From IMG/VR virus record IMGVR_UViG_3300022751_000017, positions 1-64,000 of that record: a DNA stretch of 64,000 nt; one strand, given 5' to 3'. Shown here piece after piece: positions 1 through 59,158 of the stretch (the stretch's first letter is position 1; each line of letters opens with the position of its first letter). The notes beneath the pieces are model-generated. The model saw only the letters and a list, made by a program, of their open reading frames with translations, was not told the DNA's origin and did not search any database. The stretch comes from a virus. The position numbers and the translations under genes are program-made.

Positions 1-56
1 GGTGGGGTGCTTCGCTTTGTGGGGGTTGTTTCTTTGGGGGGTCAGGGTTCGGGGTG

Positions 57-530
57 CTATAGGGCAGCGGTGGCGATGGCACCGGGAAAGGGGAGAATAA
101 ATTTATCAGTTAACAATGCTATGTACATATTAGCAACGGCAGATGCGGCAGTCTCTCCATACCAGCTGCGCCAAGATTTACTTACCTTGCTGCCATCAGC
201 CAGTTCTCCCATTTCGGCACAATCAATTTCAACCTTATATTGTTGAAACCCAGTAATGTTCAGTGTCTTGAAAACCAAGGGTTGAGAAACTCCCTCCGAC
301 ACCTTAAACCTTCGACAATCTGGCATGTATTCCAAAATTTCAGCGGCAGTCCACGCCGGATACACCTCCACTGCATCGTCATGTACATCCCACATGCCGG
401 GTGGTAATACTTCCCATCCGCATTTACGGCCCTGGTTAATGTGGTGAAAATAACTTGGCGCAGTGATACCCAACTCCTGTAGGCGTATTGACTGCTCTCT
501 AGTGCATACTAATTGTTCCGGTGTTTGCAT
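57..530 (-). CDS. hypothetical phage protein (3' end lies in compositionally odd G-rich sequence)
   Basis: 157-aa ORF in the tightly packed leftward early cluster. Confidence 0.6.
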   Translation of the reverse strand: MQTPEQLVCTREQSIRLQELGITAPSYFHHINQGRKCGWEVLPPGMWDVHDDAVEVYPAWTAAEILEYMPDCRRFKVSEGVSQPLVFKTLNITGFQQYKVEIDCAEMGELADGSKVSKSWRSWYGETAASAVANMYIALLTDKFILPFPGAIATAAL

Positions 531-976
531 AGTGCTGATTTTGTCGTGTCAAGTAAGAATTGCTTACCCTCATTTTTGAAAAGAAAGTTCTCCGATACGG
601 TGGCTCCATTCTGCATTACTGAGTATGGAAGGAATACTGTAGCCATATCCGCCTGGTCAGCCTCTACAATAGCCATCTGCGCAGATATCCAGTCCTTAAT
701 GATACGCCAGCACACGCGCATAGCATGCTCTTCTGTATGATACTTCTTGGCGTTAGTTTGCTTTATGAGCGCTTTCTGTACTCCTTTGAAGTTTGCCGGC
801 AAACGAAACAATATGCTCATGTCATTGGAGAGTATTGTAAATGATATTCCCACCAATCTCTGCTTAACATCATAGTCCAGCATGATCTGTCTGGCACCCT
901 TAGATGACAGAAGCTTCTGTATGTCAGCACAAGTGGCATGCTCACTGATCGTAGTTGTGTAATTAAGAATTGCCAT
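509..976 (-). CDS. conserved phage hypothetical protein
   Basis: 155 aa; AMRVCWRIIKDWISAQMAIVE...FLPY motif resembles a widespread uncharacterised phage family. Confidence 0.75.
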   Translation of the reverse strand: MAILNYTTTISEHATCADIQKLLSSKGARQIMLDYDVKQRLVGISFTILSNDMSILFRLPANFKGVQKALIKQTNAKKYHTEEHAMRVCWRIIKDWISAQMAIVEADQADMATVFLPYSVMQNGATVSENFLFKNEGKQFLLDTTKSALCKHRNN

Positions 977-8073: not shown

Positions 8074-8478
8074 TTAGTAGTGCTTATTTATCTTATCGTA
8101 TATCTTCTCTGTAAGGTAGCTTATTAAGTAAGCATAGGCCTCATCAGACACCAGCAACTTAAGTTTCATTCCTATGCGGTCCATCACAAAGGTGACGATG
8201 TGGAATATCTCATGCGCCAGGGTAGCAAAGTCACGAGCGCTACTTGGCAGATGCCGGAGCCTTATGAAAGAACCATTGGTGCTGAACATAACTGCACGAC
8301 CAATTGCAGTGGTGCTGGCATACCGGCAAAGCTCTATATCCGCAACAGAAAGGTCCAGCTTATCCAACACTGCACCCAGCTGCTCATCACTCTGCCCTAT
8401 GCTTACCATTACATCAAATGGATATACCTCTAAGGGTATTATGAAATTAAGAGATGGTGGTGTTTTCTTCTTGCTCAT
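8074..8478 (-). CDS. HExxH metallopeptidase-like phage protein
   Basis: LAHEIFHIV ... DEAYAYL. Confidence 0.65.
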   Translation of the reverse strand: MSKKKTPPSLNFIIPLEVYPFDVMVSIGQSDEQLGAVLDKLDLSVADIELCRYASTTAIGRAVMFSTNGSFIRLRHLPSSARDFATLAHEIFHIVTFVMDRIGMKLKLLVSDEAYAYLISYLTEKIYDKINKHY

Positions 8479-10124: not shown

Positions 10125-10140
10125 AATGGTTGTGTGAAAT

Positions 10141-10371
10141 TTATTGTTTGAAAATATCCCCTTGCACCGGCGCACTCACCACCACTGCATTATCTGCCAG
10201 GAAACCTGCAGCACGCTCCGCTACTTCTTCTCTTGTATCTCCCCATATGTGAGCAGATATAACACGAGCGCCATTGTCTACTGATACTTTGCAAGTGAAA
10301 CGGCCCTTGGATGAGCGAATTGGCGTGCTGCTATGTGATAGCATATTGTTTCCTTCTTGTTGGACACTCAT
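10141..10371 (-). CDS. small hypothetical protein
   Basis: 76-aa ORF in operon. Confidence 0.5.
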   Translation of the reverse strand: MSVQQEGNNMLSHSSTPIRSSKGRFTCKVSVDNGARVISAHIWGDTREEVAERAAGFLADNAVVVSAPVQGDIFKQ

Positions 10372-30933: not shown

Positions 30934-33900
30934 ATGCCGTTTAAATTTACGCAGTCTTTTAATAAGGGAATGAATATGGATTTCAGTGAATTGCGCCTAC
31001 CACAAGATGCTGTGCAATTTATGAAAAACATGACTGCCAATGTAAACCAGAACACTGGGACTCCTGCCCAGTCTGGAGCAAATATGGATGTATTCTCTCC
31101 TCTGGAAGGGAATGCAGTGCTATCAGTAGCCTTACCTGGTGGGACTAACTATTGTGTGGGGTTCTATAGTAGTGAACAGACAAATGAGGGATATTTCTTT
31201 TTATGGAATAGCAACATGGACCATTCCATATGGGTAATAAGAGGAGATAGTGGACTCTGTGAATTGGTATATCATGGTAATTTGCTGCCGCTACAGCTGA
31301 ATCCACTATATTTTATAGCAGAAGGCAGGTGCACTCTGGAGCTCAGGTCTTATGTAGACCCGGTAACAGGGCTTGAAACAAATTTTAAGTTCCTGATATT
31401 CACTAACAATACTATTCAACAATACTATATATCAGTAGAAGATTCTATAAACACAGATTCATTCACTGCACCGACAGGATATTTCGCCGGCGCCGGCACG
31501 TTTTATGATCCAATTACCTTGATACATCTGGGTGTTCCTACGCCTATAAGTGACATAGGAATAATCAAGGTGCCAATATCAGGTGCTGATGTTGGATTGC
31601 AGAATCAAACAATCAATCAGGCATTTCAATTCAGAAATAAAACCGTAGACGTTTTTGGACGAGAAAGCGAGCATGGCATTATAAGTCAAGTGGCGATAGA
31701 TCGTGTATCTGGTGGATGCTATGGCAGCAGCAATGCGGAGTCAAGATGTTTTGATATTACGTTTGATGCCGGGAATCCATTGGTGGATACCATATCCATA
31801 GAATATAGGACATGGGCTGGCAATGATACGGCTGCAGCACTACAAACCGGGTGGATAAAGTACGCCACCATAAATAAGTGGATAAATTCTACTGGGCTGC
31901 AATGGTATGAGCGGTCTCCCAATACTGTATATTATAATCCAGTAACAAATCTGATTACTTATAGATTTTGTGCGGATCAGCAAAATATTCCCATACCAAC
32001 AGAAGAAACGGCGCGGACAGAGCCTGGATTACCGAGATTATCCAGTGGGGTATTCTCGGTAAATAAGCGAATAGGTTTAGCTAATAACGTAAGGAATTTT
32101 GAGCCTATTAGTCCGGTAGAGACTGACAAAATAAGTTACAGTGCTATTATCCCAGAAGCTCCTGATTGCGGGATATTACCTATGCGTAAAATAGTTGCTT
32201 ATGCCTACATGTACAATTTTGCTAATGTACAGGCTGGGTATATGCAATACGAATTAATAGATGGGGTCAAGACTTATATATGGGGTAACCAGCGAGGTCA
32301 ATGCGGTGATGACACTGGCAATGCGGTGAGATTAGATCAGGTTTTTGGCGATCAGGATAATCCTGGATTTATATTCTATCTGGCTGGAACCCAATACAAC
32401 TGTGTTACTCAGTGGGGCGGCTTATTGCCATCTGGTGTTTTTACTCCATCTCCCATAATGGATGGCACCGGGGCATTCAATAGGAATATTCTTGGAGAGC
32501 CGGTATGCCAAATAACGATAATGGCACCGCCTGGTAAGTATCTCCTGAGGGGCGCCTCTCACAAGGCTAAATTAACAGATCCGGACTATCAAAACACCTC
32601 TACGTATATAGGAGGAATAATAGAGGTTAATGATCTTTATTCAACAGGGGATCCTTCAAATTATTCTTTCAATCCGATAAAGGAAATAGAAATAGATTGT
32701 ACATCAGGCGATGTTTATTTTAGAAATCCTACAGATCCAGCATTTCTGATTATTGACAATAGCTTTGGTGATACATGTATGGTAGATGGATATTTGTGTG
32801 AACAGACTGGGGAGGGTGTTCCTGTAGAGATGAACCCGATTAACTTCTCATCATACCCAGATAATGCGATGCCATGCTATGGAAGTTGGTTTACCGACCA
32901 TAATGGGTTCTTCTTTGGTGGGTGTCCTACGCAGGGTGTATATTTAGTAATAGCCTCTGATATATGTACGGGAACTTATGCTGTAGGAACCATTCTCAAC
33001 AGCGGGATTGATGGAACATTTAAAGGCATATTGCATGGGGATGGTTCTGGAGACGGCAGCTACTGTACCGAATTAAGAAGTGGCAATTGGAAAAATAAGG
33101 TTTATATATCACGTTCCGGCAATGTATTCCCAGCTAATGCGCGTCGTAAAATAACTCAGCAAATAAACTTGTGTGGTGCTGAAGGAGGGGTATCCAATGT
33201 GCCTGTAGTGATGACTAAGGGTGCTATATCATTTACGGACAGTGAAGGGATAGCAACAGTTATTGCGCATAACCGGACTAACTATGCAGCTGTGCCCTGG
33301 AATACATTGACATATCTCAACCCTATAGGTGTGCCAATATTCACAATAAATATACCGAATTACGGAGTGTCGCCATATGCAGATGATAAATTGATAGTGA
33401 CGCAACGGGGATATTGTCGGTGGACCAATTGCGGTGGCTGCGTACCTGCGGTCCCTGATCAGAATATAATATATCAGCCATGCGGTGGCTCAAGAGATAC
33501 TACACTTTCTGATGTCACCATATCTCTTGAAAATATAAATGTTCAAGGGGTGCAGACTGGTGGTAAGTATGCGATGTGTTATTGGCTGGTTGATAATATT
33601 GGCCGGCGCACATTTTCTCAGGTGAGGCAAGGGGAGTCTGGATTTGTCAGCATGCCTAGTTTGAATGATATAGGATATTATAGGCTGCCCCAGATTGGAT
33701 ATACTATAGACCCGTCATTTACAGTGCCGTCCATTTTTAAGAAATTAATATTCGGGGTATCTGCTAATACTAATTTCACAGACTTCTTTTCGTGGTCTAT
33801 TGATTACGTGCAGCAGGTTGATAACACAGGCAATACCAATACGGTCAATCCCACACAGACTAGGATATACTACGGCAGCCTTAATGAGTATAATAAGCAA

Positions 33901-35784
33901 AATAATCTGACGATAAATTGTAACTGGCAATTCATAGCAACTGGTCAAAATGCGCAGGGGCAGCCAGTAATAGGGGATGTTGTACAGTTCATTGCTAAAG
34001 CGGATGGGACATTCTTTCCCCCAGGTCTATTTGCTACCGTAACAAATGATCAGGCTGGGTACTTCTTTACAATAGACTATCAGGCTGCATTATCTGACCT
34101 TACTAATGGTGCGTTGTTCCGTGTCATCCGTCCACAGGCCAATCAGAATAACTATATCTATTACGAACAATGTAAGGTTCTGGATATAGTGGATGGACGG
34201 ATACCTGCAGGTCAACTTACGGGCATAATACCGTATTCCGATAGCTACATGTTATCCAGAGTCTTGCCAGTGCCTATTTTGCAGGGTCAGCCAGGCGTAT
34301 TGGCCCCGGGCGCAACGCCACCAAATCCTATACAGTATACTAGTACCAATCAGAATGTTACACTTGATGAGGCTGGTTATTCTACTTTTAATCCAAACAG
34401 TAATGGTGTTTTGATTAAAAGTGTGAATGATGCACAGACTTCTTTCCCTTTCTATTTTGAGAGTCCATCACCATCTGATTTTTGGGGGAGTCATCTAGCA
34501 AACAGAGGGCGGATAGGGGTAGCTAACCCACAAGAGGCACAGCAGCGTATAGGCACAGAGGTAGCCTTATCAGCGGCACTCGGTGACCGCGGAACATTCA
34601 ATGGACTATCTTATTTTGACAGTGCCAATACCCAAGTATTTGACCGTAATACCTGGGGTAACATAACGGTGGTGCTGGTAGAGGTGGGAGTATGCCTTGT
34701 CATCTGCGATAGCGATCACTTCATGGTGCGCTATAATGCTACACAGCTTACTGTAGATGCTGATGGAAATGTAAATGCTAATAACCAGAATGGTATATTC
34801 ACTACTCCACAGCGTCCTCCCGGCACGCCTTTCGGTTGTACTATGGAGAACATAAATTCTATACGTAAGTACCTGGGCAAAGTGTATTGGATAGATGCTG
34901 ATGGACGCCTTATACTGAACAACTTCAGCACCTCCCATGACGTAAGCACATATGATGCAGAGAAGGGTATAATAGGGGGATACAATGGCTACCTTATGAA
35001 CAAAGTATCTGCTGTAAACCTACGTAATGCCAATCCTGGCGCAAATGGCGTTTACTACTTTGTAGGAGGTATAGACCCGCGCACGAACGAGTACTATCTT
35101 ACCACGTTTAACATACCATCCCTTGCAGTGCCCAGGTATATCAACATACAGCCAGCAATAGACCTGTACGGCCCGGAGACTATATATGTTGACCTTAATA
35201 CCGGTATGCTAAAGGGTATGGCATCATTTACACCGGAGATGTACGGCATGGTACCGGGTTATATCAGCGGCAGGAACTTCTTTACCTTCAGAAGAGGGCT
35301 ACCATACAAGCATCATCAAGGCAGCGCTACTACCACTCCGGCTAAGTACGCTAACTTCTACGGTATACAGTGCCCATGCTATGTCATTCCAGTAGCCAAT
35401 CCGGATAGTGAAAAAGTAAAACGCTATTTCTGGGTAGAGGTGTACACTAAGCAATCAATACCTGGTGCGCCAGGTCAAATGCCTACGGCTCTATTCTATT
35501 GTGAGCAAATAACCACAGAGAAAGGACAGATGTCACGACTTAAGCCGCTGCGCTGGGACATACGGGATGGATTCCAGACTGCAGAGTTGCTGTGCGACAT
35601 GAATACGCCTTTCGATCCAAATCTTCAGCCGCAAACTACAACCAATAAACTTACGGATGGTAATCCTCTCATAGGAAGATGGATGAAGTTGACACTTAAG
35701 ACAAATGATTTGTGGGCCGGCACCTATTTTGAAGTGAGTGCGTCAATAGTTGGCATGAATTATATAAAAATAAGTGGAGAATAG
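30934..35784 (+). CDS. large tail stabilisation/nozzle (muzzle-like) protein
   Basis: 1616 aa; N-terminal FNKGMNMD, C-terminal VGGIDPRTNEYY...SFTPEMY...GNPLIGRW as in crAss-like stabilisation proteins. Confidence 0.7.
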   Translation: MPFKFTQSFNKGMNMDFSELRLPQDAVQFMKNMTANVNQNTGTPAQSGANMDVFSPLEGNAVLSVALPGGTNYCVGFYSSEQTNEGYFFLWNSNMDHSIWVIRGDSGLCELVYHGNLLPLQLNPLYFIAEGRCTLELRSYVDPVTGLETNFKFLIFTNNTIQQYYISVEDSINTDSFTAPTGYFAGAGTFYDPITLIHLGVPTPISDIGIIKVPISGADVGLQNQTINQAFQFRNKTVDVFGRESEHGIISQVAIDRVSGGCYGSSNAESRCFDITFDAGNPLVDTISIEYRTWAGNDTAAALQTGWIKYATINKWINSTGLQWYERSPNTVYYNPVTNLITYRFCADQQNIPIPTEETARTEPGLPRLSSGVFSVNKRIGLANNVRNFEPISPVETDKISYSAIIPEAPDCGILPMRKIVAYAYMYNFANVQAGYMQYELIDGVKTYIWGNQRGQCGDDTGNAVRLDQVFGDQDNPGFIFYLAGTQYNCVTQWGGLLPSGVFTPSPIMDGTGAFNRNILGEPVCQITIMAPPGKYLLRGASHKAKLTDPDYQNTSTYIGGIIEVNDLYSTGDPSNYSFNPIKEIEIDCTSGDVYFRNPTDPAFLIIDNSFGDTCMVDGYLCEQTGEGVPVEMNPINFSSYPDNAMPCYGSWFTDHNGFFFGGCPTQGVYLVIASDICTGTYAVGTILNSGIDGTFKGILHGDGSGDGSYCTELRSGNWKNKVYISRSGNVFPANARRKITQQINLCGAEGGVSNVPVVMTKGAISFTDSEGIATVIAHNRTNYAAVPWNTLTYLNPIGVPIFTINIPNYGVSPYADDKLIVTQRGYCRWTNCGGCVPAVPDQNIIYQPCGGSRDTTLSDVTISLENINVQGVQTGGKYAMCYWLVDNIGRRTFSQVRQGESGFVSMPSLNDIGYYRLPQIGYTIDPSFTVPSIFKKLIFGVSANTNFTDFFSWSIDYVQQVDNTGNTNTVNPTQTRIYYGSLNEYNKQNNLTINCNWQFIATGQNAQGQPVIGDVVQFIAKADGTFFPPGLFATVTNDQAGYFFTIDYQAALSDLTNGALFRVIRPQANQNNYIYYEQCKVLDIVDGRIPAGQLTGIIPYSDSYMLSRVLPVPILQGQPGVLAPGATPPNPIQYTSTNQNVTLDEAGYSTFNPNSNGVLIKSVNDAQTSFPFYFESPSPSDFWGSHLANRGRIGVANPQEAQQRIGTEVALSAALGDRGTFNGLSYFDSANTQVFDRNTWGNITVVLVEVGVCLVICDSDHFMVRYNATQLTVDADGNVNANNQNGIFTTPQRPPGTPFGCTMENINSIRKYLGKVYWIDADGRLILNNFSTSHDVSTYDAEKGIIGGYNGYLMNKVSAVNLRNANPGANGVYYFVGGIDPRTNEYYLTTFNIPSLAVPRYINIQPAIDLYGPETIYVDLNTGMLKGMASFTPEMYGMVPGYISGRNFFTFRRGLPYKHHQGSATTTPAKYANFYGIQCPCYVIPVANPDSEKVKRYFWVEVYTKQSIPGAPGQMPTALFYCEQITTEKGQMSRLKPLRWDIRDGFQTAELLCDMNTPFDPNLQPQTTTNKLTDGNPLIGRWMKLTLKTNDLWAGTYFEVSASIVGMNYIKISGE

Positions 35785-36902: not shown

Positions 36903-38522
36903 TTATTTTTCTGGAACTTCCACTATTGCGCATTCAGTTGTTAGGAACATCCCGGCAACGGAGCTTGCATTTTCCAGGGACACACGAAGAACCTTAGCTG
37001 GATCTATAACGCCAGTGGCCAATAAGTCTGCATATTCATTTGTTTTGGCATTGTATCCAAAGTTGGGCGCCATTGATGTGCAGATATCATATTTTATAGA
37101 CGATATTTCAGATTGAGTGATGCCGGCGTTTTTTAGTATCTGTATCAAAGGTGCGGCCAATGATTCTACTATAAGATTGTATCCATGCACTTCATCTGTA
37201 GATTTTGATGAGGTATCTCCTATTGAGTTCTGAGCTTTCAGATAGGCTATGCCGCCACCAGGCACTATACCTTCTTCCAAGGCGGCCTTCGTAGCACACA
37301 GTGCGTCATCTACGCGATCCATCTTTTCTTTCACCTCTATCTCACTGAATCCACCTACATTAATGACCGCCATACCGCTAGTGAGCTTGGCCAGACGTAC
37401 CTCCATCTTAGGCCTTTCATAAGCGGTGATCTCTGTTCCATTGATGATGCCGCGGAGTTCTTCGGCTCGTTCAGATATTGCCAATTGATTGCCTCTTCCG
37501 CCTATTATAGTGGTGCTATCACGACCAACAACCACTTTTTCTGCTGACCCCAGCCATGCGTGTGTGCAGTCCTTAGGCTTCATGTTAAGGTCTTTATCTA
37601 TAACCGTTCCACCTACCTGGATGGCGATGTCCTGCAGCATTTCTTTCTGAGCCCCGCCGTATCCAGGCATACGTATAGCGCATGCTTTAATATTGCCTCG
37701 GACAGTGTTTATACTAAGGGTTGAGAGGGCTTCGCTGTCGGCATCGCTGCATATAATCAGCAATGAGCGCTTCTTGTCAGGTGTAGATCCTTTAGTGCAT
37801 ATTTCCATCACGCTTAGTATGTCAGTGAATGTACTTAGCTTATCCGGGCAAAGCATGATCAGTGGGTTGTCCAATATTGCTTCTGCTTTTGGCTTATCTG
37901 TTATGAATGCCGGGCTCAGATATCCTTTATCAATAGAAAGTCCGGATACTACTGACACAAATGTATCGGTGCTGCGGGACTCCTGTTTTTGTATCAGTCC
38001 ATCATTACCTACGCGCAGGACTGCATCAGCTATGTGTTTACCTATTTCTTCATCATTGTTCGCAGATATGGTAGCAATGCTGAGTACTTCCTGGCTGTCA
38101 TTGGCTATCTGCTTTGCCTGTAGCTTAATATTAGCTACAACATCGGCTACGGCATTGTCCATACCACGTTTTAGTTCTACTGGATTGGCGCCATTGGCAA
38201 CAAGCTTCATGCCCTCAGTAATGAGGTATTGGGTGAGCACTGTTGATGTGGTTGTACCATCACCGGCTTCGCCTGCGGTTTTACGCGCTACCGCCTTGAT
38301 CATCTGTGCTCCGCTATCCTCATAAGGATCTGATAATGTCCTGACGTTCTGCGCCACGGTAACACCATCCTTAGTTATGAATGGGTTCTGGCCACTATTT
38401 TGCTGTATGGTAACATTGCGTCCTTTAGGACCCAGTGTTACTTTTACTGCATCAGCTACCTTGTCTATGCCTGCCTTCATTTTGTTCCGGGCATCGGAAT
38501 TAAATTGCAATTGTGTGCTCAT
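36903..38522 (-). CDS. groEL: chaperonin GroEL (no C-terminal GGM tail)
   Basis: VTLGPKGRNV, ITKDGVTVA, AGDGTTT, EEGIVPGGG, GVIDPAKV. Confidence 0.97.
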   Translation of the reverse strand: MSTQLQFNSDARNKMKAGIDKVADAVKVTLGPKGRNVTIQQNSGQNPFITKDGVTVAQNVRTLSDPYEDSGAQMIKAVARKTAGEAGDGTTTSTVLTQYLITEGMKLVANGANPVELKRGMDNAVADVVANIKLQAKQIANDSQEVLSIATISANNDEEIGKHIADAVLRVGNDGLIQKQESRSTDTFVSVVSGLSIDKGYLSPAFITDKPKAEAILDNPLIMLCPDKLSTFTDILSVMEICTKGSTPDKKRSLLIICSDADSEALSTLSINTVRGNIKACAIRMPGYGGAQKEMLQDIAIQVGGTVIDKDLNMKPKDCTHAWLGSAEKVVVGRDSTTIIGGRGNQLAISERAEELRGIINGTEITAYERPKMEVRLAKLTSGMAVINVGGFSEIEVKEKMDRVDDALCATKAALEEGIVPGGGIAYLKAQNSIGDTSSKSTDEVHGYNLIVESLAAPLIQILKNAGITQSEISSIKYDICTSMAPNFGYNAKTNEYADLLATGVIDPAKVLRVSLENASSVAGMFLTTECAIVEVPEK

Positions 38523-38549: not shown

Positions 38550-40235
38550 TTATTCTTCAGTAAAGGTAAGCAGGTCGTTTTGGTGCATCACCAGATGCTC
38601 GACACCATCTATAGCGATCTCTGCGCCGGCCATGCGTTTAAAGTACACGACATTACCCTCTGATACTATCATAGGTATCTTATCGGTGCCTGGGCCAACT
38701 CTTATAACTCTGCCTTTTACAGGGCGCTCCTTGGCATCCTCTGGAAGTATCAGGTGTGATTCTTTCTTATCTTCTATTGGCAGGATAAGAACTTTGTCTC
38801 CGAATGGCGTGTGTATTGTGTTGCCCATGTCGTCTTTGTGTGTTTTAAGTAAAATAAAATGTTCGTGTGCTATTATGAAGTTCTCTCCCAGCAGCGTTAT
38901 TGGGTATAGTTCCTTAAATGTTGCTACTATCTTTCGGTTACCTTTAATCGGGGTGCAAATGACAGCATGATTCTTATTGACATAGGCAGCTTTCTCAAGC
39001 GCATCCGTCTTTAGTCCTTCTATGCTCGTTTCCAATGCTTGCAATTCTTCTTTCTGTGCAGGGTCTGCAGGGTTAAGCATGCGGTGCTTGTTGGATAAGC
39101 GCTGAAATGTAGCAGTGTACTTACCTGCACCTTCTTTCTTCTTTTCAGCTATTATATTCTGAAGTGCCGGCAGTGTTTTTATATCATTGAACGTATAGTC
39201 CATGTTATGCAGTTCAGACCTTGGGATTTCTTTTTTCTCAAAAAGTTCAATCTCTGGCTTAAGAAATATGTTCCTGTCAAATGGTTTGATAGTGCTCAGC
39301 TGTGGTATTGGGTTTGTGGATAGATTATTCCTGGATTCCATCATCCCGAAGATTTCTCTTCCGTCATGTGAGAAACAGTTGATCATAATGTACGCATACT
39401 TTGATTTTCCATCTTTGCCTTTTTTCTCTCGGAGCATGCGGTACTGCTGGTGCTCTACCGTGTGATGGAGTATCGCAAAGCAGCCAGGGCGAAGCTTAGG
39501 GTACATCTTGGCTGCTTCTGAACCTATGCTGACAACTTTAGCATACTGCAGGTTGTACATCATGTGTATATATGCCTCCGGGCGTATCAGGCCACTTGCC
39601 ATTTCAAACCGGCTGCGCTTCTGCTCATTGATGTCTACGCGTACTATTATTTTGTGTGGCGCAGCCTTTTCATTTACTGAGTATATATCACGCTCAAATA
39701 ATACTTCCATGATGCGGCCATCGACATTAGCTGTGGGGTACATGCCTTGTTCTGCCTTCCTGTATTCTACTGTATCCCCTACCTTAAATAAAGAGCCTGG
39801 AGGGACCGCATGTATTATTCCTTTTTGAGGGACCCCCAGCGTTTCGTCAGGAATGATGATACCGCCATCGCTCACCATTTTGCCAGATAGTGGTTCAATG
39901 AATAGCCGGTTGAATGGAGTATTATCAACCGACCATATTTCGTTCTCAAAAAGCAGGTCCAGTTCTTCTCCTGCTATCTCTATTCCGCTGTACCGCTCCT
40001 CCGGGTTATTGCGCTCGATCTTGCGATAAGATACGTGTGCACCCACCGGTATTTCTGAGCCTTCGCAGTTGGAAATAACGACACCGGTTTCGCAAACCAC
40101 ATTTGCATCTTTTGGTATTTCGATACCGTGCTGGTTTACCACTGCAGGATGTTCGTCCGGGCGCACGATAAGGCGCCTTGATATTGCTCCGCTATTGTTG
40201 ATGTAGGGGATGCTGGTTAAATTATGTGTGTGCAT
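38550..40235 (-). CDS. groES: multi-domain co-chaperonin with about five tandem GroES domains
   Basis: canonical C-terminal GroES (PFGDKVLI..LILPEDAKERPVKGRVIRVGPG) preceded by repeats GIEIP..GVVIS, GGIIIP..KGIIHAV and SGLIRP..AKVVSIG. Confidence 0.8.
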   Translation of the reverse strand: MHTHNLTSIPYINNSGAISRRLIVRPDEHPAVVNQHGIEIPKDANVVCETGVVISNCEGSEIPVGAHVSYRKIERNNPEERYSGIEIAGEELDLLFENEIWSVDNTPFNRLFIEPLSGKMVSDGGIIIPDETLGVPQKGIIHAVPPGSLFKVGDTVEYRKAEQGMYPTANVDGRIMEVLFERDIYSVNEKAAPHKIIVRVDINEQKRSRFEMASGLIRPEAYIHMMYNLQYAKVVSIGSEAAKMYPKLRPGCFAILHHTVEHQQYRMLREKKGKDGKSKYAYIMINCFSHDGREIFGMMESRNNLSTNPIPQLSTIKPFDRNIFLKPEIELFEKKEIPRSELHNMDYTFNDIKTLPALQNIIAEKKKEGAGKYTATFQRLSNKHRMLNPADPAQKEELQALETSIEGLKTDALEKAAYVNKNHAVICTPIKGNRKIVATFKELYPITLLGENFIIAHEHFILLKTHKDDMGNTIHTPFGDKVLILPIEDKKESHLILPEDAKERPVKGRVIRVGPGTDKIPMIVSEGNVVYFKRMAGAEIAIDGVEHLVMHQNDLLTFTEE

Positions 40236-40252
40236 GAATATGTTTTTGAGTA

Positions 40253-40269
40253 ACCTGCAAAGTGCAGGT
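40253..40269. promoter_or_regulatory. operator copy 1 ACCTGCA-AAG-TGCAGGT
   Basis: identical 17-mer at three intergenic sites. Confidence 0.75.
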
Positions 40270-40728
40270 AAAGATATTGTAATTAATCAGAAGTGCAAAG
40301 GTATGCGGTTTTTTTTGCAGGGTAAAGCGGTTTTAAATTGTTTCATCCCGCGCAAACTGTGCCAAGCTTGCGAATGAAAGGTTAGCTATCAACTCAGGAA
40401 ATCAGTTTAGTTCGATGCCGCAAGGCTGACTTGATAAATTGAAAAGTATTATTCGGTAAAAATGCTGGCAATGTTTGGAAGGTAACAACTAGCAACGGAC
40501 AAGGCAGTGTGTGCTGCACCCAAAACACTGAATACCTATATGAGGAGTAGAAGTTGAGCGTAGCCTGATGTCATCGGCATTAATACAAAATGACATAAAC
40601 TTTTAACTGGTGCCTTACTATAAAGGGACTTGTTTGGAGGAAGACCTTTCTTTGTTGATAATCTAATATAAACCATTATATTTGCACTGCAACTCTTACA
40701 AATTGCAGTGTCAGTTCTCGCTGACTTA

Positions 40729-40764
40729 ATCCCCAACTGTGGCACTGGTTGGGGATAATTTTTT
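40729..40764 (+). terminator. terminator of a short non-coding transcript
   Basis: ATCCCCAAC/GTTGGGGAT plus T-run, downstream of TATATTTG at 40677. Confidence 0.55.
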
Positions 40765-40772
40765 CTTTAGTA

Positions 40773-40789
40773 ACCTGCACTTTGCAGGT
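40773..40789. promoter_or_regulatory. operator copy 2 (inverted) ACCTGCA-CTT-TGCAGGT
   Basis: 40 nt upstream of TAGTTTTG (40830-40837). Confidence 0.75.
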
Positions 40790-40853
40790 GCGACACTCGC
40801 CAATCACTATAATCACAATCATTAAAAAGTAGTTTTGTGCATAATACTACTTT

Positions 40854-48602: not shown

Positions 48603-51248
48603 ATGTTCTTATTAAGGGAATGGATTGAGACCAACGAGGGTGAAAAAAATATTGAGTGGGCTAACCGTATCATCTCATTTGTGCGGATGTATATGTCGCC
48701 ATTGGTCAATCTTGATTCTGCTGAGATGGGTATGAACTACCTGCTCGGGCGCCAGGATATGTCTCCTATACGCAACCTGTTCCAGAATCCTATAGCCCTT
48801 AATCTGAACAACACCACATACGGTAATACAGGATACGGTAGAGTGTTTGGCCCCAATGGGCAGCCGGTAAAGCCCGAAGAGCGCAATCTGCATCCTGAGA
48901 TGTTAGGTGTTGAATTCCGCTCATTACCTGTAATGGAAAAGCTGAGGAACATGCTGGTGGCGGAGATGAAAAAAATGGGGGTAGTGCTCACCGTGAAAAG
49001 CGATGACCCTACCGCTACCATCAACAGGAAAAAGGACGAGGCGTTCATTAAGGACAGGCACAATATAGAAGGGCTTTTAAATTATATTTATACCTCCATA
49101 GGCGAAGCCCCGTTCAAGATAGAAGAGCACGAGGCAAGGTTCGGGGAGAAGCCAGACAATGGCAACACTCAGGATTTTCAGCGTATGAGTCTAAATCCTG
49201 GGAATCCATCTGATGTGGATTTCTTTATGCGTAATTTCCATAAGCTGGATGCGGAAATGGCGGCGGAGAATCCTATTAATTACTTCATGAGATTTAATGA
49301 GGTAGAGGATATATTCTTTGAAAACTGGACTACAGACCTGGTGGCAAAAAAAGCTATTGCCGGGCAGCAGTACGTAAGTAAGCTAAATGGAGCAATAAAG
49401 TTTGATTATCTCACTCCGGAGACAACGTACATATACGGTGGTGGGAGGAGAAAGGATTTTGATGATGCAAATGCCAAGGCATACCAGCAGAATATTACCA
49501 TAAAAGATCTACTTGACAGGATAGGTGATGAATTCGATTTTAATAAAGAGCTTAATCTGCTTTTTCAGGCAGTTTATACCTGCAGCCAAGGATCAATTGA
49601 TATTACCGGTATAGGTACAGACGCCCGTAATGGATGGTTTTGTTCAGCGCGCACAGGCACTAAGTACTCCTACCGGGATTTTATGGACTTTAAGGTGTCT
49701 TTCGGATACATGGAGTGGATCAGCGCAAATGAGACAGATTATGGTGCTGAAGCAAACCTAACAGGTGACAGAAAGTTCGATGAGGACAAGAGCACATTTT
49801 CTTATGGTGGGTCTGGAGGGGAAGAGTCTCCTGAAAAAAGGTACGCAAAAAAAGCGCGCTACGAGGTGCCTACATACAAGGCCTACTATCTTGTTCTTAG
49901 TTCTTATGAGCAGCGGATATTTGATTTTGGCAAAGTAACTTACCAGCAGATAGAAGGGTACAATGACTTTAACTCAAACTGGACCATACTCACTTACAAA
50001 GAGATAGGAGATAGTATTGCTATCAACTGCGCCCCTTTTGTAGACATCATCAATGAGTGCTGGTATAAATGGAAGTACGAGGTTCGCAAGGCAAAGCCCA
50101 GGGGGACTGATTACAACTATGACAGCCTTCTGGATATTGCTGAGGATACCTTTTCTGATACCAACATGACCCAGGCAGATAAGATACAGAAGATGGTGTC
50201 TTGGCTAGATGCATCTGCCAATGGTATGTGGAAATTTCCGCAGATAGATGGGAAGATAGTAGCTATGTCCAACAATGCGCTGAATATAGATAAGCCAAAC
50301 GGACTGACTGCAGAGATCATGCGCTGGTGGGAAATGCTCATCAAGTCATGGGAGCAGATGCTATCGGTAGTAGGCCTTGATGCGCCCCTAAGGCAGGGTG
50401 ATCCCGGCAATGCAAGGGATAGTATGAATAATCAGTTCAAGGCTCTGGAATATAGCCAGAACAATACTTATTATATCCCGGACAGCCTTACGTATATGGC
50501 GCAGAAGCTGGCTACGCGTACTATGCTGCAGGTTCAAGACATTATTCAGTTCAAAGATCATGATACCCTGGCATTTAAATTCCTTGCGGATGCTGTTGGA
50601 GAGGATTGTCTTGCCAGGATATCGCAGCTAGGCAAGAAGGCCATGCACCGGTATGGTATATTCGTGGAGAGCCTTAACCAGGCGCCACAGAAGGCTAAGC
50701 TGGATGCGAGAATAGATGCCGCAATACAGAATGGTAAGATCAGCAATGCGGAAGCGCTAATGCTGGATGAAATAAAAAGCCTCAAGAGCAAGGCGCTAAT
50801 GCTGGCCTATTTTGAGCAGCGCAATGCATCTCTTGTGCAGAAGAACGCTATGGAAATGCAGCAAGCCCAGGCGCAGCAAGCCCAGGCGCAGCTTCAGGGT
50901 GAAAAGGAAAACATTTTGCTCAAGGGCAACCTTGAGATTGAGAAGGCAAAGGTTGAAGGTAGCTTCGCGCTGCAAGGGCACATGATCACACAGCAAGGCG
51001 GCATGGCTAAGCAGGAGATGAAGCATAGTGCAGATAGCAGGCAGATATACGAACAGGCTCAAGCCAATGTGATGGAGCAGCAACAGAGCCTTAATGATAC
51101 CGGCAAGACTACACCGCCGGCGCAATCCGCAATAGTGCCTACGCCATACAGCAACCCTATTAACCAGATACCGCATCAGTCCGGCATCCAGCAGTCGATG
51201 GCTGATTCCCAGCCGATGAGTACTGAACAGGCTGCGATGATTCCATAA
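48603..51248 (+). CDS. portal protein
   Basis: 881 aa, helical, Q-rich coiled C-terminus, upstream of scaffold and capsid; size typical of crAss-like portals. Confidence 0.7.
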   Translation: MFLLREWIETNEGEKNIEWANRIISFVRMYMSPLVNLDSAEMGMNYLLGRQDMSPIRNLFQNPIALNLNNTTYGNTGYGRVFGPNGQPVKPEERNLHPEMLGVEFRSLPVMEKLRNMLVAEMKKMGVVLTVKSDDPTATINRKKDEAFIKDRHNIEGLLNYIYTSIGEAPFKIEEHEARFGEKPDNGNTQDFQRMSLNPGNPSDVDFFMRNFHKLDAEMAAENPINYFMRFNEVEDIFFENWTTDLVAKKAIAGQQYVSKLNGAIKFDYLTPETTYIYGGGRRKDFDDANAKAYQQNITIKDLLDRIGDEFDFNKELNLLFQAVYTCSQGSIDITGIGTDARNGWFCSARTGTKYSYRDFMDFKVSFGYMEWISANETDYGAEANLTGDRKFDEDKSTFSYGGSGGEESPEKRYAKKARYEVPTYKAYYLVLSSYEQRIFDFGKVTYQQIEGYNDFNSNWTILTYKEIGDSIAINCAPFVDIINECWYKWKYEVRKAKPRGTDYNYDSLLDIAEDTFSDTNMTQADKIQKMVSWLDASANGMWKFPQIDGKIVAMSNNALNIDKPNGLTAEIMRWWEMLIKSWEQMLSVVGLDAPLRQGDPGNARDSMNNQFKALEYSQNNTYYIPDSLTYMAQKLATRTMLQVQDIIQFKDHDTLAFKFLADAVGEDCLARISQLGKKAMHRYGIFVESLNQAPQKAKLDARIDAAIQNGKISNAEALMLDEIKSLKSKALMLAYFEQRNASLVQKNAMEMQQAQAQQAQAQLQGEKENILLKGNLEIEKAKVEGSFALQGHMITQQGGMAKQEMKHSADSRQIYEQAQANVMEQQQSLNDTGKTTPPAQSAIVPTPYSNPINQIPHQSGIQQSMADSQPMSTEQAAMIP

Positions 51249-53075: not shown

Positions 53076-54650
53076 ATGATAACCTACGCTTTAACTCCCC
53101 AGCATGCTCCACGTCAGATATTTTCCGTTGGTGAGGCACAGACTCAGTTCCAGCCGTTCTCAGATGTCTACAGGCAACTGTGGGATTTCGTGGAAGATGG
53201 CGGATTAGATGCCTTCGGGATAAACAAGGAAGACCTGGCGCGTTGGCGTAAAAACTTCCGTGAGGGAGTGGTGAACATTGGTGGTAAGCCATCAGAGATA
53301 GACTTCTTCCGTATGATGATGGGTGGCACTCCTAAGGAGACAAACGCCTCTTCAATCAGCGTAGAGTATAACAGTGCGTTGGACTACAACATATACGCAG
53401 AGAATGATGCTACCGGCACCAACGGCGCTGTCACCAATGCATACTTTGGAGACCTGATAAACGGCACTTACAATGGTAACTACGTGGTGTTCGACATTGC
53501 GGTTGATACTTATGCAGATAACGGTACCAAGTCCAATATAAATGTTGGCGACCAGATATTCAACTACATAGATGGTAAGTATCTGGTGGTGATCAAGAAG
53601 GATGTAACCACTCCTTTTGCGCACCATATCTACTGCGCACCTTTCGATGGTAACTATACGCCTCAGATATATGCGAAGCAGCCAATGCAGCCCAACCATA
53701 TACAGCTGGTGTCTGGTTATAGCGATGCTACTACATCTGCGCCGCACAGTGAGTGGGAAACCCTCGGTTACATCAAGGAGTATAACCCATTCTCTCTTCG
53801 TACAGACTGGGAAACACCGCGTAACCTGGAGAAGCCATACAAGGATATTCTGCAGTTCCCGATCATATTCGATATGCATACCGGTGCAGAGATGGACTCA
53901 TGGGACTTCAAAGCGATGGCTGATGGCCGCGAGCGTATGATCATGGGTGAGAACATGATGTTCTTCACAGGTGAGCAGCTGACCAATGTAAGCCTGATAT
54001 CAAATACATATACAAACCAGTATAACGGTTTTGAAGGGCTTCTGACCACCATCTGGTATGGCGGCGGCAATATACAGCAGTATGACAATAGCTATGGTTA
54101 CGACCTGGATGTTGACTTCATGCAGATGGTATTCTCAAACGATGCACTGAAGAAATCTCAGGAGTTCCTGTTCCTGGCCGCAAAGCGCTGGATATACATG
54201 ATGGAGCGCCGTAGCCAGGATATGTTTAAGAATAACTCAGGGGCATGCACTTTTGATACGTTTGAGCGTATGGGTGATGAGCGTGCCGATCTGAAGCGCC
54301 TGGGCATCAACTCATACGAGTGGAGAGGTTCAACAATGCATATCAAGGAAGTCGGTGCATGGTCTGACAGCCGCTGGGTAGGTAATGCTTATTTCCCCGC
54401 TATGGCTATAGTTCTGCCAGGCGATGGTCTTACAGACAGCAAGGGCAATAAAGTATCTCCGGTTGAGTACTGGATACCAGCAGGCCGTAGAGTGTCTGGA
54501 ACATGGCAGGAAGAGTGGAGAGACCACATGAAGCTTTCAGATAAGGCTGATAAGTTCTCAGGTACCATTACTCATGACATTATGATGAGCGTGAACGGAG
54601 TGGAAAATATGTGGGCAGTGATGCCGAAATACATTGTGAGCAATTCTTAA
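53076..54650 (+). CDS. major capsid protein
   Basis: 524 aa; ENMMFFTGE...FEGLLTTIWYGG spine-helix/P-domain pattern; position; strong 3' hairpin. Confidence 0.75.
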   Translation: MITYALTPQHAPRQIFSVGEAQTQFQPFSDVYRQLWDFVEDGGLDAFGINKEDLARWRKNFREGVVNIGGKPSEIDFFRMMMGGTPKETNASSISVEYNSALDYNIYAENDATGTNGAVTNAYFGDLINGTYNGNYVVFDIAVDTYADNGTKSNINVGDQIFNYIDGKYLVVIKKDVTTPFAHHIYCAPFDGNYTPQIYAKQPMQPNHIQLVSGYSDATTSAPHSEWETLGYIKEYNPFSLRTDWETPRNLEKPYKDILQFPIIFDMHTGAEMDSWDFKAMADGRERMIMGENMMFFTGEQLTNVSLISNTYTNQYNGFEGLLTTIWYGGGNIQQYDNSYGYDLDVDFMQMVFSNDALKKSQEFLFLAAKRWIYMMERRSQDMFKNNSGACTFDTFERMGDERADLKRLGINSYEWRGSTMHIKEVGAWSDSRWVGNAYFPAMAIVLPGDGLTDSKGNKVSPVEYWIPAGRRVSGTWQEEWRDHMKLSDKADKFSGTITHDIMMSVNGVENMWAVMPKYIVSNS

Positions 54651-54706: not shown

Positions 54707-55717
54707 ATGAGTACTACAACATTGCCAAGGGAAGTCGCAGAAGTAGCTAATATTCATCAGAACATGGTGTTTGAAATGATCAGCCGGTCAACATCCGGAT
54801 TTATCCGCAAGGATGACGTAGGCAAAGTCAATCCGCGCAAAATGAATTCAGCGAAGCGCTTCGACCTCCCGGTTACATCAAGGCACCATATAGGTAAGGG
54901 TAAGGGGTATATTAAAACACAGTATGTTCCTGGCGCCGATACTATATATGTGGATGATTATGTAGATGCAGATGGTAAAATACAGTCCGGACTTAAAAAG
55001 CAGGGGATAAATCTGGAACTGGAGCGTGAGCGTGCAATACAGATGAATATCCATTTTAAGTTCGGCATACTTGATCTCAGGCAATATGGAGAAGATCCAA
55101 TGCTGGTAGAGTTCGTGAATAAACATGAGATGAATGCGGAATCTGCAGCCGGCAAAAACCCTGACCGTACCGTAAGCCGCATGTTCCAGTTCCAGCCAAT
55201 GCGTAAAGAGGAGAAGGCTGCTAAGCGCACTGTAGGCTTTGAAGAGCAGTATGAGGCGATGTCAATTATAAAAGCACTTCGTACAAAGACGGCGGCTGGA
55301 TTTGAATATGACGTAGCACAGGTTGATGCGATCATTAATGTGCTGGGCCTTAAGACAGCCGATCTCGGTGACAGCGACACTGCGCAGAAGTTTGAGATAA
55401 TACTCAAGGCCGCATCTCAGGATGGCATTGAGTTCCTTAAGATAGTGAATGATGCACTGAACAGTACGCGCTTGACAATAGCAAAGGCATTGGGTATGGG
55501 TATCGTTAAGATAAGCAGCAAAGGAGCTGATATAAAGGCTGGTGAAGGTGCGCAGACTAGGGAGGTTTTAAAATTCAAAAACGGAATGGATGAATCTGCG
55601 CGCATGCAGGCGCTCGCTATTCATTTGCTTGGCGGAAGCCCACAGGCGCAAAACGATCTTAATACCATCATCAGCGAGGTAGAGATCGGAGAGATAAGTG
55701 CGCTCTCAAAGAAGTAA
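54707..55717 (+). CDS. conserved capsid-adjacent protein
   Basis: 336 aa; YVPGADTIYVDD, IHFKFGIL, FVNKHEMN. Confidence 0.6.
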   Translation: MSTTTLPREVAEVANIHQNMVFEMISRSTSGFIRKDDVGKVNPRKMNSAKRFDLPVTSRHHIGKGKGYIKTQYVPGADTIYVDDYVDADGKIQSGLKKQGINLELERERAIQMNIHFKFGILDLRQYGEDPMLVEFVNKHEMNAESAAGKNPDRTVSRMFQFQPMRKEEKAAKRTVGFEEQYEAMSIIKALRTKTAAGFEYDVAQVDAIINVLGLKTADLGDSDTAQKFEIILKAASQDGIEFLKIVNDALNSTRLTIAKALGMGIVKISSKGADIKAGEGAQTREVLKFKNGMDESARMQALAIHLLGGSPQAQNDLNTIISEVEIGEISALSKK

Positions 55718-56770: not shown

Positions 56771-59158
56771 ATGCCAGCACTACCAATTACAACATCACCT
56801 GATATTACATCGCTTAATTTCGGGATACTATACGATATCTCTGCCGGTACGCCGTCAATTACACTGACTAACTTATCCGTGGGTAATCCATCCGGATCTA
56901 CCCGGCTGAATAATTGTACCTGGTGGTATAAAATATACTCTCCTAATGGTGTAGCTATTCATGAGGGTTCTGAATCTACACCGGATGTTGATAATAATAC
57001 ATGGTCAACATTGACAATCCCTGCAGGTTCATGGCCAACGCCTTTCGGTATACCTCCATATGGGCAGGTTGAGTTCAGCTGCGCAGTGCCATATGTGGCT
57101 ACATTGTTTGTAAAGGACGGTGTAGGCAACATATACAGTACGGCACCCAAGTCAACACTTCTGTGCCGGCCAAATGGCAATACCGATAAGACAAAGGGGA
57201 ACTTTGGCGCAGCAGAAGTGGGAATGCAGACACAGTGTGCCCAGGCAAAAATATATTCTTCAGATACCACCAATTACACTTATCAGGGCATAATTGGTAG
57301 TTCACAGGCGAGTACCTGGACGCTTGCATATCCAATGGATGCGGATGGTAATCTGCCTGACCCTGTAGTAGTCCTTAATAAGCCTACGGTAATATTCCCT
57401 GTAGGATATAGCTCTGAAGGTTACCAGCTATATCTCAATACATTTTGTACATACAATACAGGCGACAATGGCGCCGTAAAAATACAGTACAAATTTAAGG
57501 AAGTGTTCTCTGTATTCTGTAATGTAGACCTGTGTGCTATACAGTGTGAAATAGACAAGCTATATGCACAGCTGTCACCTAAATGCGGTACTGTGACCAA
57601 TCCTGAATTGCAGGACAGGCTGTTCCGTATAGGTGTGCTAATGGATAAGTGCCTTACTGGCATAGCACAGCCTTTATGCGGCATAGACGTACCGGCAACC
57701 ATACAGGAGATAAAGCGCATAGGTTGCTTTGACTGTGATTGCATGTGCGGTACAGGAGGGGGGATCAATCCGGTAGGGAATACTACGGGCATAATCACTT
57801 TCGACACAGAAACGGTAGGTGATATCACCGCAGTTATAACCAATGTAGGTGACAACTATCTCTTGCATCTGGAAGTGCCGAATAGTGGAGGTGTTCCTAA
57901 TCTGCAGCAGGTAAGCCAGGTAGGTAATGTGACCAACAGGCCTTTATATAGCGGAGTGCAGGCATCATATTATTCAAGTATTGCCTCAAGAAATGTAAAT
58001 GTCGCCAATGGTGCGGACATCCTTATTGCACTTGATAGCTCTACAGGTACCAATTACCTGCGTATAAAGGGTGCTACATCTGGTATTGTTCAGCTTACAG
58101 CTGCAGATGTTACTACCCCATATACTATGAAGCTGCCAGCGGCGCAAGGTACCGGGTATTTGAAGAACCCGGGAGATGGGTTGCTTGTGTGGGATGCAAG
58201 TGGCGGCGGCGGATCTCAGAACCTGCAGCAGGTTACTACTGTAGGCAATGAAACTACCAACCCTATAAACCTTAAGGGTGCAGGAACAAAGCTTATGCAG
58301 CTAACATCAGGCGGGTTTGCTGTATACCAATCTACCGGTGACCTGTGGGCTGGGCTTGATACATCTCTGGGGATAGCAAGATTTATCTTGAGGGGAGGCG
58401 CCGCAGGTACAGGAACTGTTAATATGCAAGCGCCGAGCGCAATATCCGCTTCGTATGACTGGATATTCCCGGCTGCGCAGGGAGGCGCTAATACGTTGCC
58501 GCTGAATGATGGTACGGGCCAGCTGTCATGGTGGCTCGCAAATTTACAGAATGTAACAAATAATGGGTCAATAACAACAAATACGATCACAGTAGGTGCC
58601 TCTGCAGGTTCTAATGCAAAGCTATCTGCGACTGATGTGACAGTGTATAATGCTTCTGTCGTTGTTGCTAGATTGTTAGGGGTAGGAGGTATTGGTATTT
58701 TGACATTAAGAGAATTCACTGGGTTCATTGTCAACTTGAGGGCAGACCCCGGCGGGATGACTTCTAATTTGGATTTTTTCTTCCCGAGATTTAAATCTGG
58801 CACATTGGCATTGAGTGGTGCCGGAACTGCTGTGACCTTTGCGTTGAATGTCGGTGCCGGCACTGGTGCCACTGTAGTAGATAATTTATCAAATGATAAC
58901 GGTGGATCTTTCACAATTACAACAGGTACAAGTCCTGCAGTAGGGAGGGTCATTTTAGTATCATACTCTATGACATATCCTACAACACCGTATAGGCATG
59001 TTGTGATATGCCCTGGTAATGCTGCTACGGCAGCGTTAAGTGGCGCGCAGAATGTATATGCGAATGAAGGCTCTTTGAATAGTTTTGAAATTATATCCGG
59101 TGCCACCCCATTGGCTGCAAGTACAGTATATCGCTGGAATTATGTAGTTAGTAACTAA
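56771..59158 (+). CDS. tail fibre/hub protein
   Basis: Cys-rich N-terminal half; three NLQ(Q/N)V..G..T repeats; G/T-rich beta C-terminus. Confidence 0.7.
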   Translation: MPALPITTSPDITSLNFGILYDISAGTPSITLTNLSVGNPSGSTRLNNCTWWYKIYSPNGVAIHEGSESTPDVDNNTWSTLTIPAGSWPTPFGIPPYGQVEFSCAVPYVATLFVKDGVGNIYSTAPKSTLLCRPNGNTDKTKGNFGAAEVGMQTQCAQAKIYSSDTTNYTYQGIIGSSQASTWTLAYPMDADGNLPDPVVVLNKPTVIFPVGYSSEGYQLYLNTFCTYNTGDNGAVKIQYKFKEVFSVFCNVDLCAIQCEIDKLYAQLSPKCGTVTNPELQDRLFRIGVLMDKCLTGIAQPLCGIDVPATIQEIKRIGCFDCDCMCGTGGGINPVGNTTGIITFDTETVGDITAVITNVGDNYLLHLEVPNSGGVPNLQQVSQVGNVTNRPLYSGVQASYYSSIASRNVNVANGADILIALDSSTGTNYLRIKGATSGIVQLTAADVTTPYTMKLPAAQGTGYLKNPGDGLLVWDASGGGGSQNLQQVTTVGNETTNPINLKGAGTKLMQLTSGGFAVYQSTGDLWAGLDTSLGIARFILRGGAAGTGTVNMQAPSAISASYDWIFPAAQGGANTLPLNDGTGQLSWWLANLQNVTNNGSITTNTITVGASAGSNAKLSATDVTVYNASVVVARLLGVGGIGILTLREFTGFIVNLRADPGGMTSNLDFFFPRFKSGTLALSGAGTAVTFALNVGAGTGATVVDNLSNDNGGSFTITTGTSPAVGRVILVSYSMTYPTTPYRHVVICPGNAATAALSGAQNVYANEGSLNSFEIISGATPLAASTVYRWNYVVSN

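Follow-up and report, generated by a model that had tools for sequence, protein, structure and literature searches.

A phage gene directly upstream of groEL very probably encodes a lid of five linked GroES-fold units, with a candidate internal start for a free GroES

The 64,000 nucleotides (nt) analysed here (the window) are the first part of the 91,186-base IMG/VR virus record IMGVR_UViG_3300022751_000017, which is about 70% complete and represents an uncultured phage. On the minus strand, an open reading frame (ORF) of 561 amino acids (aa) at 38550..40235 (P0001) is followed 27 nt downstream by a canonical groEL (PF00118, E 1.7e-62). Sequence profiles and predicted structure together indicate that this ORF very probably encodes a multi-domain lid for the phage's own GroEL, built of five GroES-fold units arranged head to tail. 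The best explanation for the locus as a whole, which we consider rather probable, is such a five-unit lid plus a free copy of unit 5 that starts at an internal methionine, Met470. A preliminary description, made from the letters of the window alone, had given the coordinates of the ORF and its place upstream of groEL correctly, and its five-domain architecture was borne out, units 1, 2 and 5 being recognized by profile and units 3 and 4 by predicted structure. The features of the two genes are the following.

38550..40235, minus strand: five-unit co-chaperonin gene (P0001); Pfam Cpn10 E 2.5e-28, with 3 matched stretches; about 27 full-length relative clusters, 33-55% identical
39921..40214, minus strand: unit 1, diverged GroES domain with loop HGIEIP (residues 8-105); hhalign 98.5%, Pfam E 0.033
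39666..39920, minus strand: unit 2, GroES domain with canonical loop GGIIIP (residues 106-190); Pfam E 2e-6, hhalign 98.8%
39294..39665, minus strand: unit 3, strongly diverged GroES-fold domain (residues 191-314); hhalign 88% against unit 5, predicted structure
38832..39293, minus strand: unit 4, GroES-like barrel with the mobile loop replaced by an insertion (residues 315-468); predicted structure, 7ekq_S and 7ekq_R
38979..39173, minus strand: helical hairpin of unit 4 (residues 355-419); DSSP on both models
38826..38858, minus strand: linker between units 4 and 5 with in-frame ATG (Met470) and A-rich leader; proposed internal start
38550..38828, minus strand: unit 5, canonical GroES and putative free 92-aa product (residues 470-561); Pfam E 6e-18, hhalign 100%
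36903..38522, minus strand: phage groEL, 539 aa, presumed partner; PF00118 E 1.7e-62

All five GroES-like motifs from which the units had originally been proposed are present, namely RRLIVRP at residues 20-26, PFNRLFIEP at 107-115, APHKIIVRV at 192-200, PFDRNIFLKP at 318-327 and PFGDKVLILP at 477-486. Against the Pfam Cpn10 family (PF00166, curated cut-off 21.1 bits) the whole protein scores 98.4 bits, above the cut-off. The per-segment Cpn10 scan that had been suggested as a check succeeded in part: unit 5 (E 6e-18, 65 bits) and unit 2 (E 2e-6, 28 bits) exceed the cut-off, unit 1 (residues 1-105 tested; E 0.033, 14.7 bits) remains below it, and units 3 and 4 have no match by segment, either to Pfam Cpn10 or in PHROGs. 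Pfam alone would thus support three GroES units at most.

Profile-profile comparison reaches further. The alignment of 27 family members was cut into units, and these were compared by hhalign with a free-GroES profile and with each other. Unit 1 (98.5%, E 2e-15, 77 columns), unit 2 (98.8%, E 4e-17, 76 columns) and unit 5 (100%, E 3e-38, 87 columns) all match free GroES, the last being as canonical as had been supposed. Units 1 and 2 are each other's closest relatives (99.7%, E 8e-27, 83 columns), which points to a tandem duplication; the linkers between units 1 and 2 and between units 2 and 3 are very short. The match of unit 3 to unit 5 (88%, E 3e-6) extends over 40 columns, from the loop to the second strand only, and unit 4 matches GroES or unit 5 weakly (16-44%, E 2e-4 to 2e-3, 23 columns).

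For units 3 and 4 the evidence comes from structure prediction. The core formed by these two units (residues 191-468) was modelled with AlphaFold2 from a 48-sequence alignment (pLDDT 91.3, pTM 0.84), and a model of the full-length 561-aa chain was also made. When the core model was compared by VIA-align with 48,161 PDB representatives, its best match was 7ekq_S (Z 9.3, 156 residues), a 194-residue tandem co-chaperonin of Chlamydomonas. The match covers 1..276 of the model and 13..194 of the chain, and both barrels as well as their mutual arrangement agree; the remaining listed matches (Z 7.7 and below) cover the helical insertion only. In Foldseek, GroES/Cpn10 chains make up 22 of the top 24 matches to the core model and T4 gp31 follows at rank 29, with probabilities of up to 1.00, yet the best E-value is 2.7e-3. 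The full-length model matches 7ekq_R (Z 9.9, 174 residues aligned over 227..560), so that the arrangement of units 4 and 5, too, is that of a Cpn20 pair, and unit 5 of this model resembles 1wnr_G (Z 10.5, rmsd 2.3 over 80 residues) and T4 gp31 (1g31; Z 7.6). The models therefore give every unit a predicted GroES beta-barrel fold, and in the case of unit 4 the assignment is made from the predicted structure alone. Confinement of GroES similarity, by score or by fold, to the C-terminal segment had been named beforehand as speaking against the whole proposal, and it is not observed.

Unit 4 is, as described at the outset, the weakest of the five and carries a helical insertion in place of the mobile loop. 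A strand at 322-331 is followed by an insertion of 92 residues (332-423), located after the first strand where GroES has its mobile loop, and then by five strands within 424-467. The two helices of the insertion (355-386 and 392-419) form a hairpin of about 65 residues with the tip LNPAD, which is rigid and about 45 A long according to the models. Its length is conserved in the family and the tip reads (N/D)-P in 21 of the 27 members, and the helix sequences are variable. The hairpin also matches MacA/AcrA, an RNA polymerase beta insertion and designed bundles (Z about 6-7.7); these are matches of a generic coiled coil, to which no meaning was given.

The other four units keep what would be the contact element of a lid. 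GroES docks on helices H and I of GroEL through the hydrophobic tripeptide of its mobile loop. In the 27 aligned members a motif G-h-x-h-P (h, hydrophobic), the counterpart of the IVL tripeptide by which GroES docks on GroEL (PMC5780408), is located at the mobile-loop position of units 1, 2, 3 and 5, with the family consensus G-L-I-I-P in unit 1, G-L/I-I-I-P in unit 2, S-G-I-x-L-S-P in unit 3 and hydrophobic L-I-L-P in unit 5; unit 4 has no such motif. In the window, the unit 3 loop SGLIRP is flanked by short helices on either side, and the unit also contains the motifs NLQYG and AILHH. Neighbouring units of the chain would sit as neighbouring subunits of a GroES ring, so that one chain would fill five adjacent positions of the lid, and the loops of units 1, 2, 3 and 5 would dock on the apical domains of GroEL. 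Because unit 4 has a hairpin instead of a loop, each lid would carry one non-canonical position.

Linkage to groEL helps to decide whether the chain is a lid at all. The related loci are metagenomic (L001-L008), apart from L012, which comes from a metagenome-assembled genome (MAG) labelled uncultured Bacteroidetes, and in all nine distinct related loci (10/10 counting the window) groEL lies downstream of the multi-unit gene and shares its strand. The phage GroEL aligns end to end with group I chaperonins, its top match being 9rwr (E 2.8e-154), the reconstructed chaperonin of a Fibrobacteres-Chlorobi-Bacteroidetes ancestor. An array of GroES barrels could nevertheless serve a different purpose, for example capping or inhibiting the heptameric protease ClpP, as the Cpn11/20/23 ring of Chlamydomonas does, or acting as an assembly scaffold or adaptor. 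Such a role would agree with the top structural match, since 7ekq shows a ring of co-chaperonins on ClpP (10.1101/2021.07.26.453741), with the distance of units 3 and 4 from canonical GroES, and with the resemblance of the hairpin, and of PDZ-like inserts found in some relatives, to binding modules. Considering the strict same-strand linkage to groEL in 10/10 loci, the presumed GroEL-docking motif kept in four units and the canonical GroES at the end of the chain, we regard a function other than that of a GroEL lid as very unlikely.

Some details of the phage GroEL itself stand out. It lacks the C-terminal GGM repeat, the apical domain has a 5-residue insertion after helix H (KGSTPDKKRS), and the helix I groove is altered (ALSTLSIN vs ALATLVVN). 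These three changes may be co-adaptations to an unusual lid. Between the two genes, locus L008 has an additional 86-aa ORF (L008:9649-9909), and L001 has a 190-aa ORF in the same place.

How general the architecture is was examined by searching for relatives. A word-indexed search returned 8 full-length relatives; when 1.84 billion representatives were searched exhaustively with HMMER, about 27 full-length clusters (541-595 aa, 29-55% identity) were obtained. These data bear on the explanation that separate groES-like genes were joined into one long ORF artificially, by chimeric assembly or a sequencing error. One locus, L007, really has two genes: units 1-4 form a chain of 473 aa that is closed by a stop codon, and a 93-aa GroES gene begins 41 nt further on. 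On the other hand, the architecture recurs without interruption, at 547-595 aa, in about 27 independent clusters that stem from different samples, and the junction is open in L001, L002, L003, L005, L006, L008, L012 and the partial L004; an artefact is already effectively refuted by the family.

Shorter relatives also exist. The complete ones start with Met, and their matches end a few residues from the boundary between units 4 and 5. They can be arranged by the units that they contain:

Units 3+4 alone: P0046, P0062, P0082 and P0097 (264-300 aa)
Core plus one GroES: P0042, P0049, P0083 and P0041
Core plus two GroES: P0044 and P0153
One unit plus core: P0036, P0037, P0039 and P0057
Two units plus core: P0026, P0029 and P0031
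Unit 3 loop with an apparent PDZ-like insert: P0048, P0050 and P0145

Since relatives have two, three or four units per chain, the constant part of the family is the unit 3+4 core with its hairpin and not the number five, and the canonical GroES units around this core vary from 0 to 3. The PDZ-like insert, recognized by eye from the sequence, comprises about 90 residues at the mobile-loop position of unit 3. Among 50,697 GenBank phage records searched by tblastn with P0001 and P0049, only the last GroES unit was matched, and the unit 3+4 core was absent at E <= 1e-3. Scans of viral contigs with the family queries A1, A4, P0062 and P0049 detected no relatives, and an Atlas search gave weak leads only, to viral clusters carrying Cpn10.

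The second part of our explanation concerns the linker between units 4 and 5. An in-frame ATG at 38828-38826 (Met470) is preceded by cttaaaacacacaaagacgac / aaaacacacaaagacgac, both as initially reported. The linker is the least conserved segment of the alignment (mean conservation 0.36); all the same, 27/27 full-length members have a Met in it, which changes its place in the alignment from member to member but always precedes the first strand of unit 5 by 5-12 residues. With an overall Met frequency of 2.2%, about 23% of 12-residue windows would hold a Met by chance, and the only other 12-residue window with a Met in 27/27 members is the one that holds the aligned structural M225. In L007, the Met of the separate GroES gene is as far from the first strand as Met470.

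The surroundings of the ATG resemble those of genuine starts. According to a leader position weight matrix derived from 41 true starts, the Met470 leader scores 1.34 bits; this value falls inside the true-start distribution and, among 324 in-frame internal ATGs, at the 97.5th percentile, in agreement with the likeness to the leaders of other genes that was noticed at the beginning. In the eight orthologous genes (that of the window and those of seven loci), the 16 nt upstream of the linker ATG contain 0-2 G, and in seven of the eight the lack of structure in the 50 nt around it is at or above the 90th percentile of the mRNA. Initiation in Bacteroidetes is tuned by mRNA structure and upstream adenines and not by Shine-Dalgarno (SD) pairing (PMC6847099), and an unstructured, G-poor linker leader fits these rules. 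Finally, no other Cpn10 ORF was found in the 91-kb record or in the loci with the fused form (up to ±8 kb where the contig reaches). A single-domain GroES encoded by these phages themselves could come from an internal start only. A Bacteroidota-type TAnnTTTG box is absent upstream of the internal ATG in 8/8 genes, which leaves an internal promoter unsupported and internal initiation on the same mRNA as the remaining route. The internal start that the preliminary description had put forward as a possibility hence has strong comparative support in the conserved linker Met, its leader, the split in L007 and the lack of another groES. We consider it probable that SD-independent initiation at Met470 produces unit 5 by itself, a free GroES of 92 aa, the same mRNA yielding both the full chain and the free unit.

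Several points weigh against this combined picture. The A-rich, unstructured state of the linker would be expected of any hydrophilic sequence rich in K, N and T, whether or not initiation was selected for; position -3 of Met470 is G, the favoured base being A; and M386, which is also internal, equals Met470 on the leader matrix. The three- or four-unit relatives P0042, P0083 and P0153 are without the linker Met, from which it follows that a fused last unit evidently works without a free copy. As for the lid itself, the fold of unit 4 comes from prediction only, where a Z of 9.3 is modestly above the helical background of about 7.7, and the full-chain model is of moderate quality (pLDDT 76, pTM 0.64). 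Host GroES could complete the ring. Moreover, engineered GroES concatamers of six or eight domains also function (PMC5780408), and consequently an arrangement of 5+2, or indeed a count of seven, is not required.

Some of these points favour an alternative in which the 561-aa chain is an obligate single-chain lid and the only product of the gene; the linker Met would be left over from the fusion of a groES gene to a four-unit gene upstream of it. The remaining positions would then be occupied by host GroES, or the lid would be an open arc of five units, or a second chain would fill the ring with its other units dangling. From the split in L007 it is clear that the two parts have existed, or can exist, as distinct genes, and the fused GroES of P0042, P0083 and P0153, the working six- and eight-domain concatamers (PMC5780408) and the missing A at -3 of Met470 all agree with a single product. 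However, a relic Met should decay in a linker as poorly conserved as this one, yet it is kept in every full-length member although its position shifts, and its surroundings are start-like in seven of the eight genes. A sole single-chain product thus appears unlikely, though less so than a function apart from GroEL.

Returning to the five-unit chain with a free unit 5, a mixed ring containing single-domain subunits is suggested, from sequence comparison, by the linker Met, the split in L007 and the absence of another groES. Free units might complete the ring around one chain, most simply as 5+2=7; we hold this to be possible, somewhat short of an even chance, with host GroES as the alternative filler of the remaining ring positions. 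For the arm of unit 4 several functions are conceivable: it may bring in clients, make the cage larger or vent it, or touch GroEL at another site. Speculatively, the hairpin, together with the PDZ inserts of the relatives, suggests that certain phage substrates are recruited or accommodated at the asymmetric position, and among these functions the PDZ inserts would favour client recruitment. A more far-reaching version, which we put forward tentatively and think rather doubtful, is a natural asymmetric lid for which one mRNA would give the chain and, from the conserved internal start, free GroES units at a set ratio. Chain and free units would form a seven-position ring with an arm in place of a docking loop at exactly one position, that of unit 4, and the 3+4 core would be a substrate-selecting or cage-modifying module that makes GroEL a client-specific machine. 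To this core phages would add anywhere from 0 to 3 further GroES units and, in some lineages, a PDZ domain.

GroES is the textbook homo-heptamer, and comparison with known systems shows where the phage chain departs from it. Bacterial GroES/Cpn10 (PF00166; 1aon_O, 1wnr) is the family of which unit 5 is a canonical member and units 1 and 2 are clear homologues, and the bacterial groESL operon has the same order, with the lid gene upstream of groEL. Bacterial GroES is, however, a single-domain 10-kDa protein with seven identical loops in its homo-heptamer, whereas the phage chain links five non-identical units, one of them without a loop. T4 gp31 (1g31) is likewise a phage-encoded GroES-fold lid of low sequence similarity, but it is a single-domain homo-heptamer that works with host GroEL, while here the phage encodes its own GroEL together with the five-unit chain.

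The closest counterparts are the tandem co-chaperonins of plastids, Cpn20/Cpn21 and, in Chlamydomonas, CPN20/CPN23 with single-domain CPN11 (7ekq; PMC5780408), which also have GroES domains head to tail in a ring-neighbour arrangement and are the best structural matches of the phage chain (Z 9.3 and 9.9). Plastid rings reach seven domains by combining tandem with single-domain subunits (PMC5780408), the same arithmetic as in the 5+2 ring considered above. On the other hand, the plastid proteins have two domains rather than five, belong to a eukaryotic organelle, and consist of canonical domains without a hairpin; their single-domain partner comes from a separate gene and that of the phage from the proposed internal start. 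The phage context and the different domain number make a fusion independent of the plastid lineage more likely, and we class the chain with the GroES-family co-chaperonins, as one working in the manner of a Cpn20-type tandem lid, and do not place it in the plastid lineage. Engineered linked concatamers (PMC5780408) demonstrate that GroES units joined by short linkers can still make up a functional lid, not every position of which has to be canonical; they are artificial and made of identical units, in contrast to the natural, non-identical units of the phage. The internal start has parallels of its own. In-frame internal starts that give two products from one bacterial gene are known for IF2 alpha/beta, ClpB 93/79 and CheA long/short. 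In these cases, too, one ORF yields a full-length and a C-terminal protein at a set ratio, but their starts were shown experimentally, whereas the phage start is deduced from conservation and leader features and would be SD-independent. Among engineered lids, there has reportedly also been work on a fused GroES7.

The literature searched contained no paper describing a phage multi-domain GroES or a natural five-unit chain. The survey of virioplankton chaperonins considered single-domain GroES only (PMC5649160), and the only natural GroES fusions described are the two-domain plastid Cpn20 proteins, called chloroplast-specific in a 2018 review (PMC5780408). Three things are new here: the chain of five units, the recognition that the diverged unit 3+4 core with its hairpin is the constant module, and the comparative evidence for an internal start.

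Concerning the host, SD motifs precede 1 of 41 genes in the window, leaders being A-rich and depleted of G, and a TAnnTTTG box (TAccTTTG) is located 68 nt upstream of the ATG of the five-unit gene. Together with the label of the MAG from which L012 comes, these characteristics fit a Bacteroidota host. Upstream of the five-unit gene, about 620 nt without a convincing ORF (40236-40853) separate it from a divergent gene at 40854 and are probably a divergent regulatory region. A 17-bp palindrome occurs there twice, at 40253-40269 (ACCTGCA-CTT-TGCAGGT) and at 40773-40789 (ACCTGCA-AAG-TGCAGGT), the first copy ending 17 nt ahead of the start codon of the five-unit gene. Elsewhere in the window, a DNA methyltransferase at 8475-10175 and a DnaB-like helicase at 11995-13461 match PHROG families strongly. 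None of the large proteins presumed to be virion components (30934-35784, 48603-51248, 53076-54650, 54707-55717 and 56771-59158), one of them of 1616 aa, matches a PHROG family at E <= 0.001, and the structural module is that of a poorly sampled phage group.

Several related loci share a further peculiarity. PDZ domains bind C-terminal peptides, and as some relatives carry a PDZ domain it deserves mention that unrelated-looking proteins beside the chaperonin genes have a common C-terminal tail, (D/E)RSVA(T/P/N)xA(K/E), encoded at L001:3846-4418, L002:7525-7968, L007:97-681, L007:697-2118 and L008:7598-7906; the four-unit chain of L007 ends in it as well. The tail could be a tag for sorting, cleavage or chaperonin targeting. 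It was found on none of the ORFs of the window and was therefore dropped as an explanation for this locus.

How multi-domain lids fit a seven-fold ring is still debated, and this phage family would offer a compact two-gene system, a lid and a GroEL, for three questions about chaperonins: how many docking loops does a lid need, how is asymmetry tolerated or used, and can a chaperonin become client-specific? The system is tractable, with one non-canonical position, a probable free subunit from an internal start, and natural variants of two, three, four and five units. It would also provide a clear candidate for programmed internal initiation in the SD-less translation of Bacteroidota. The chaperonin lids of phages are far more varied than gp31 and single-domain GroES, and, if the asymmetric lid outlined above is true, phages would have converted GroEL from a general cage into a folding machine for particular clients.

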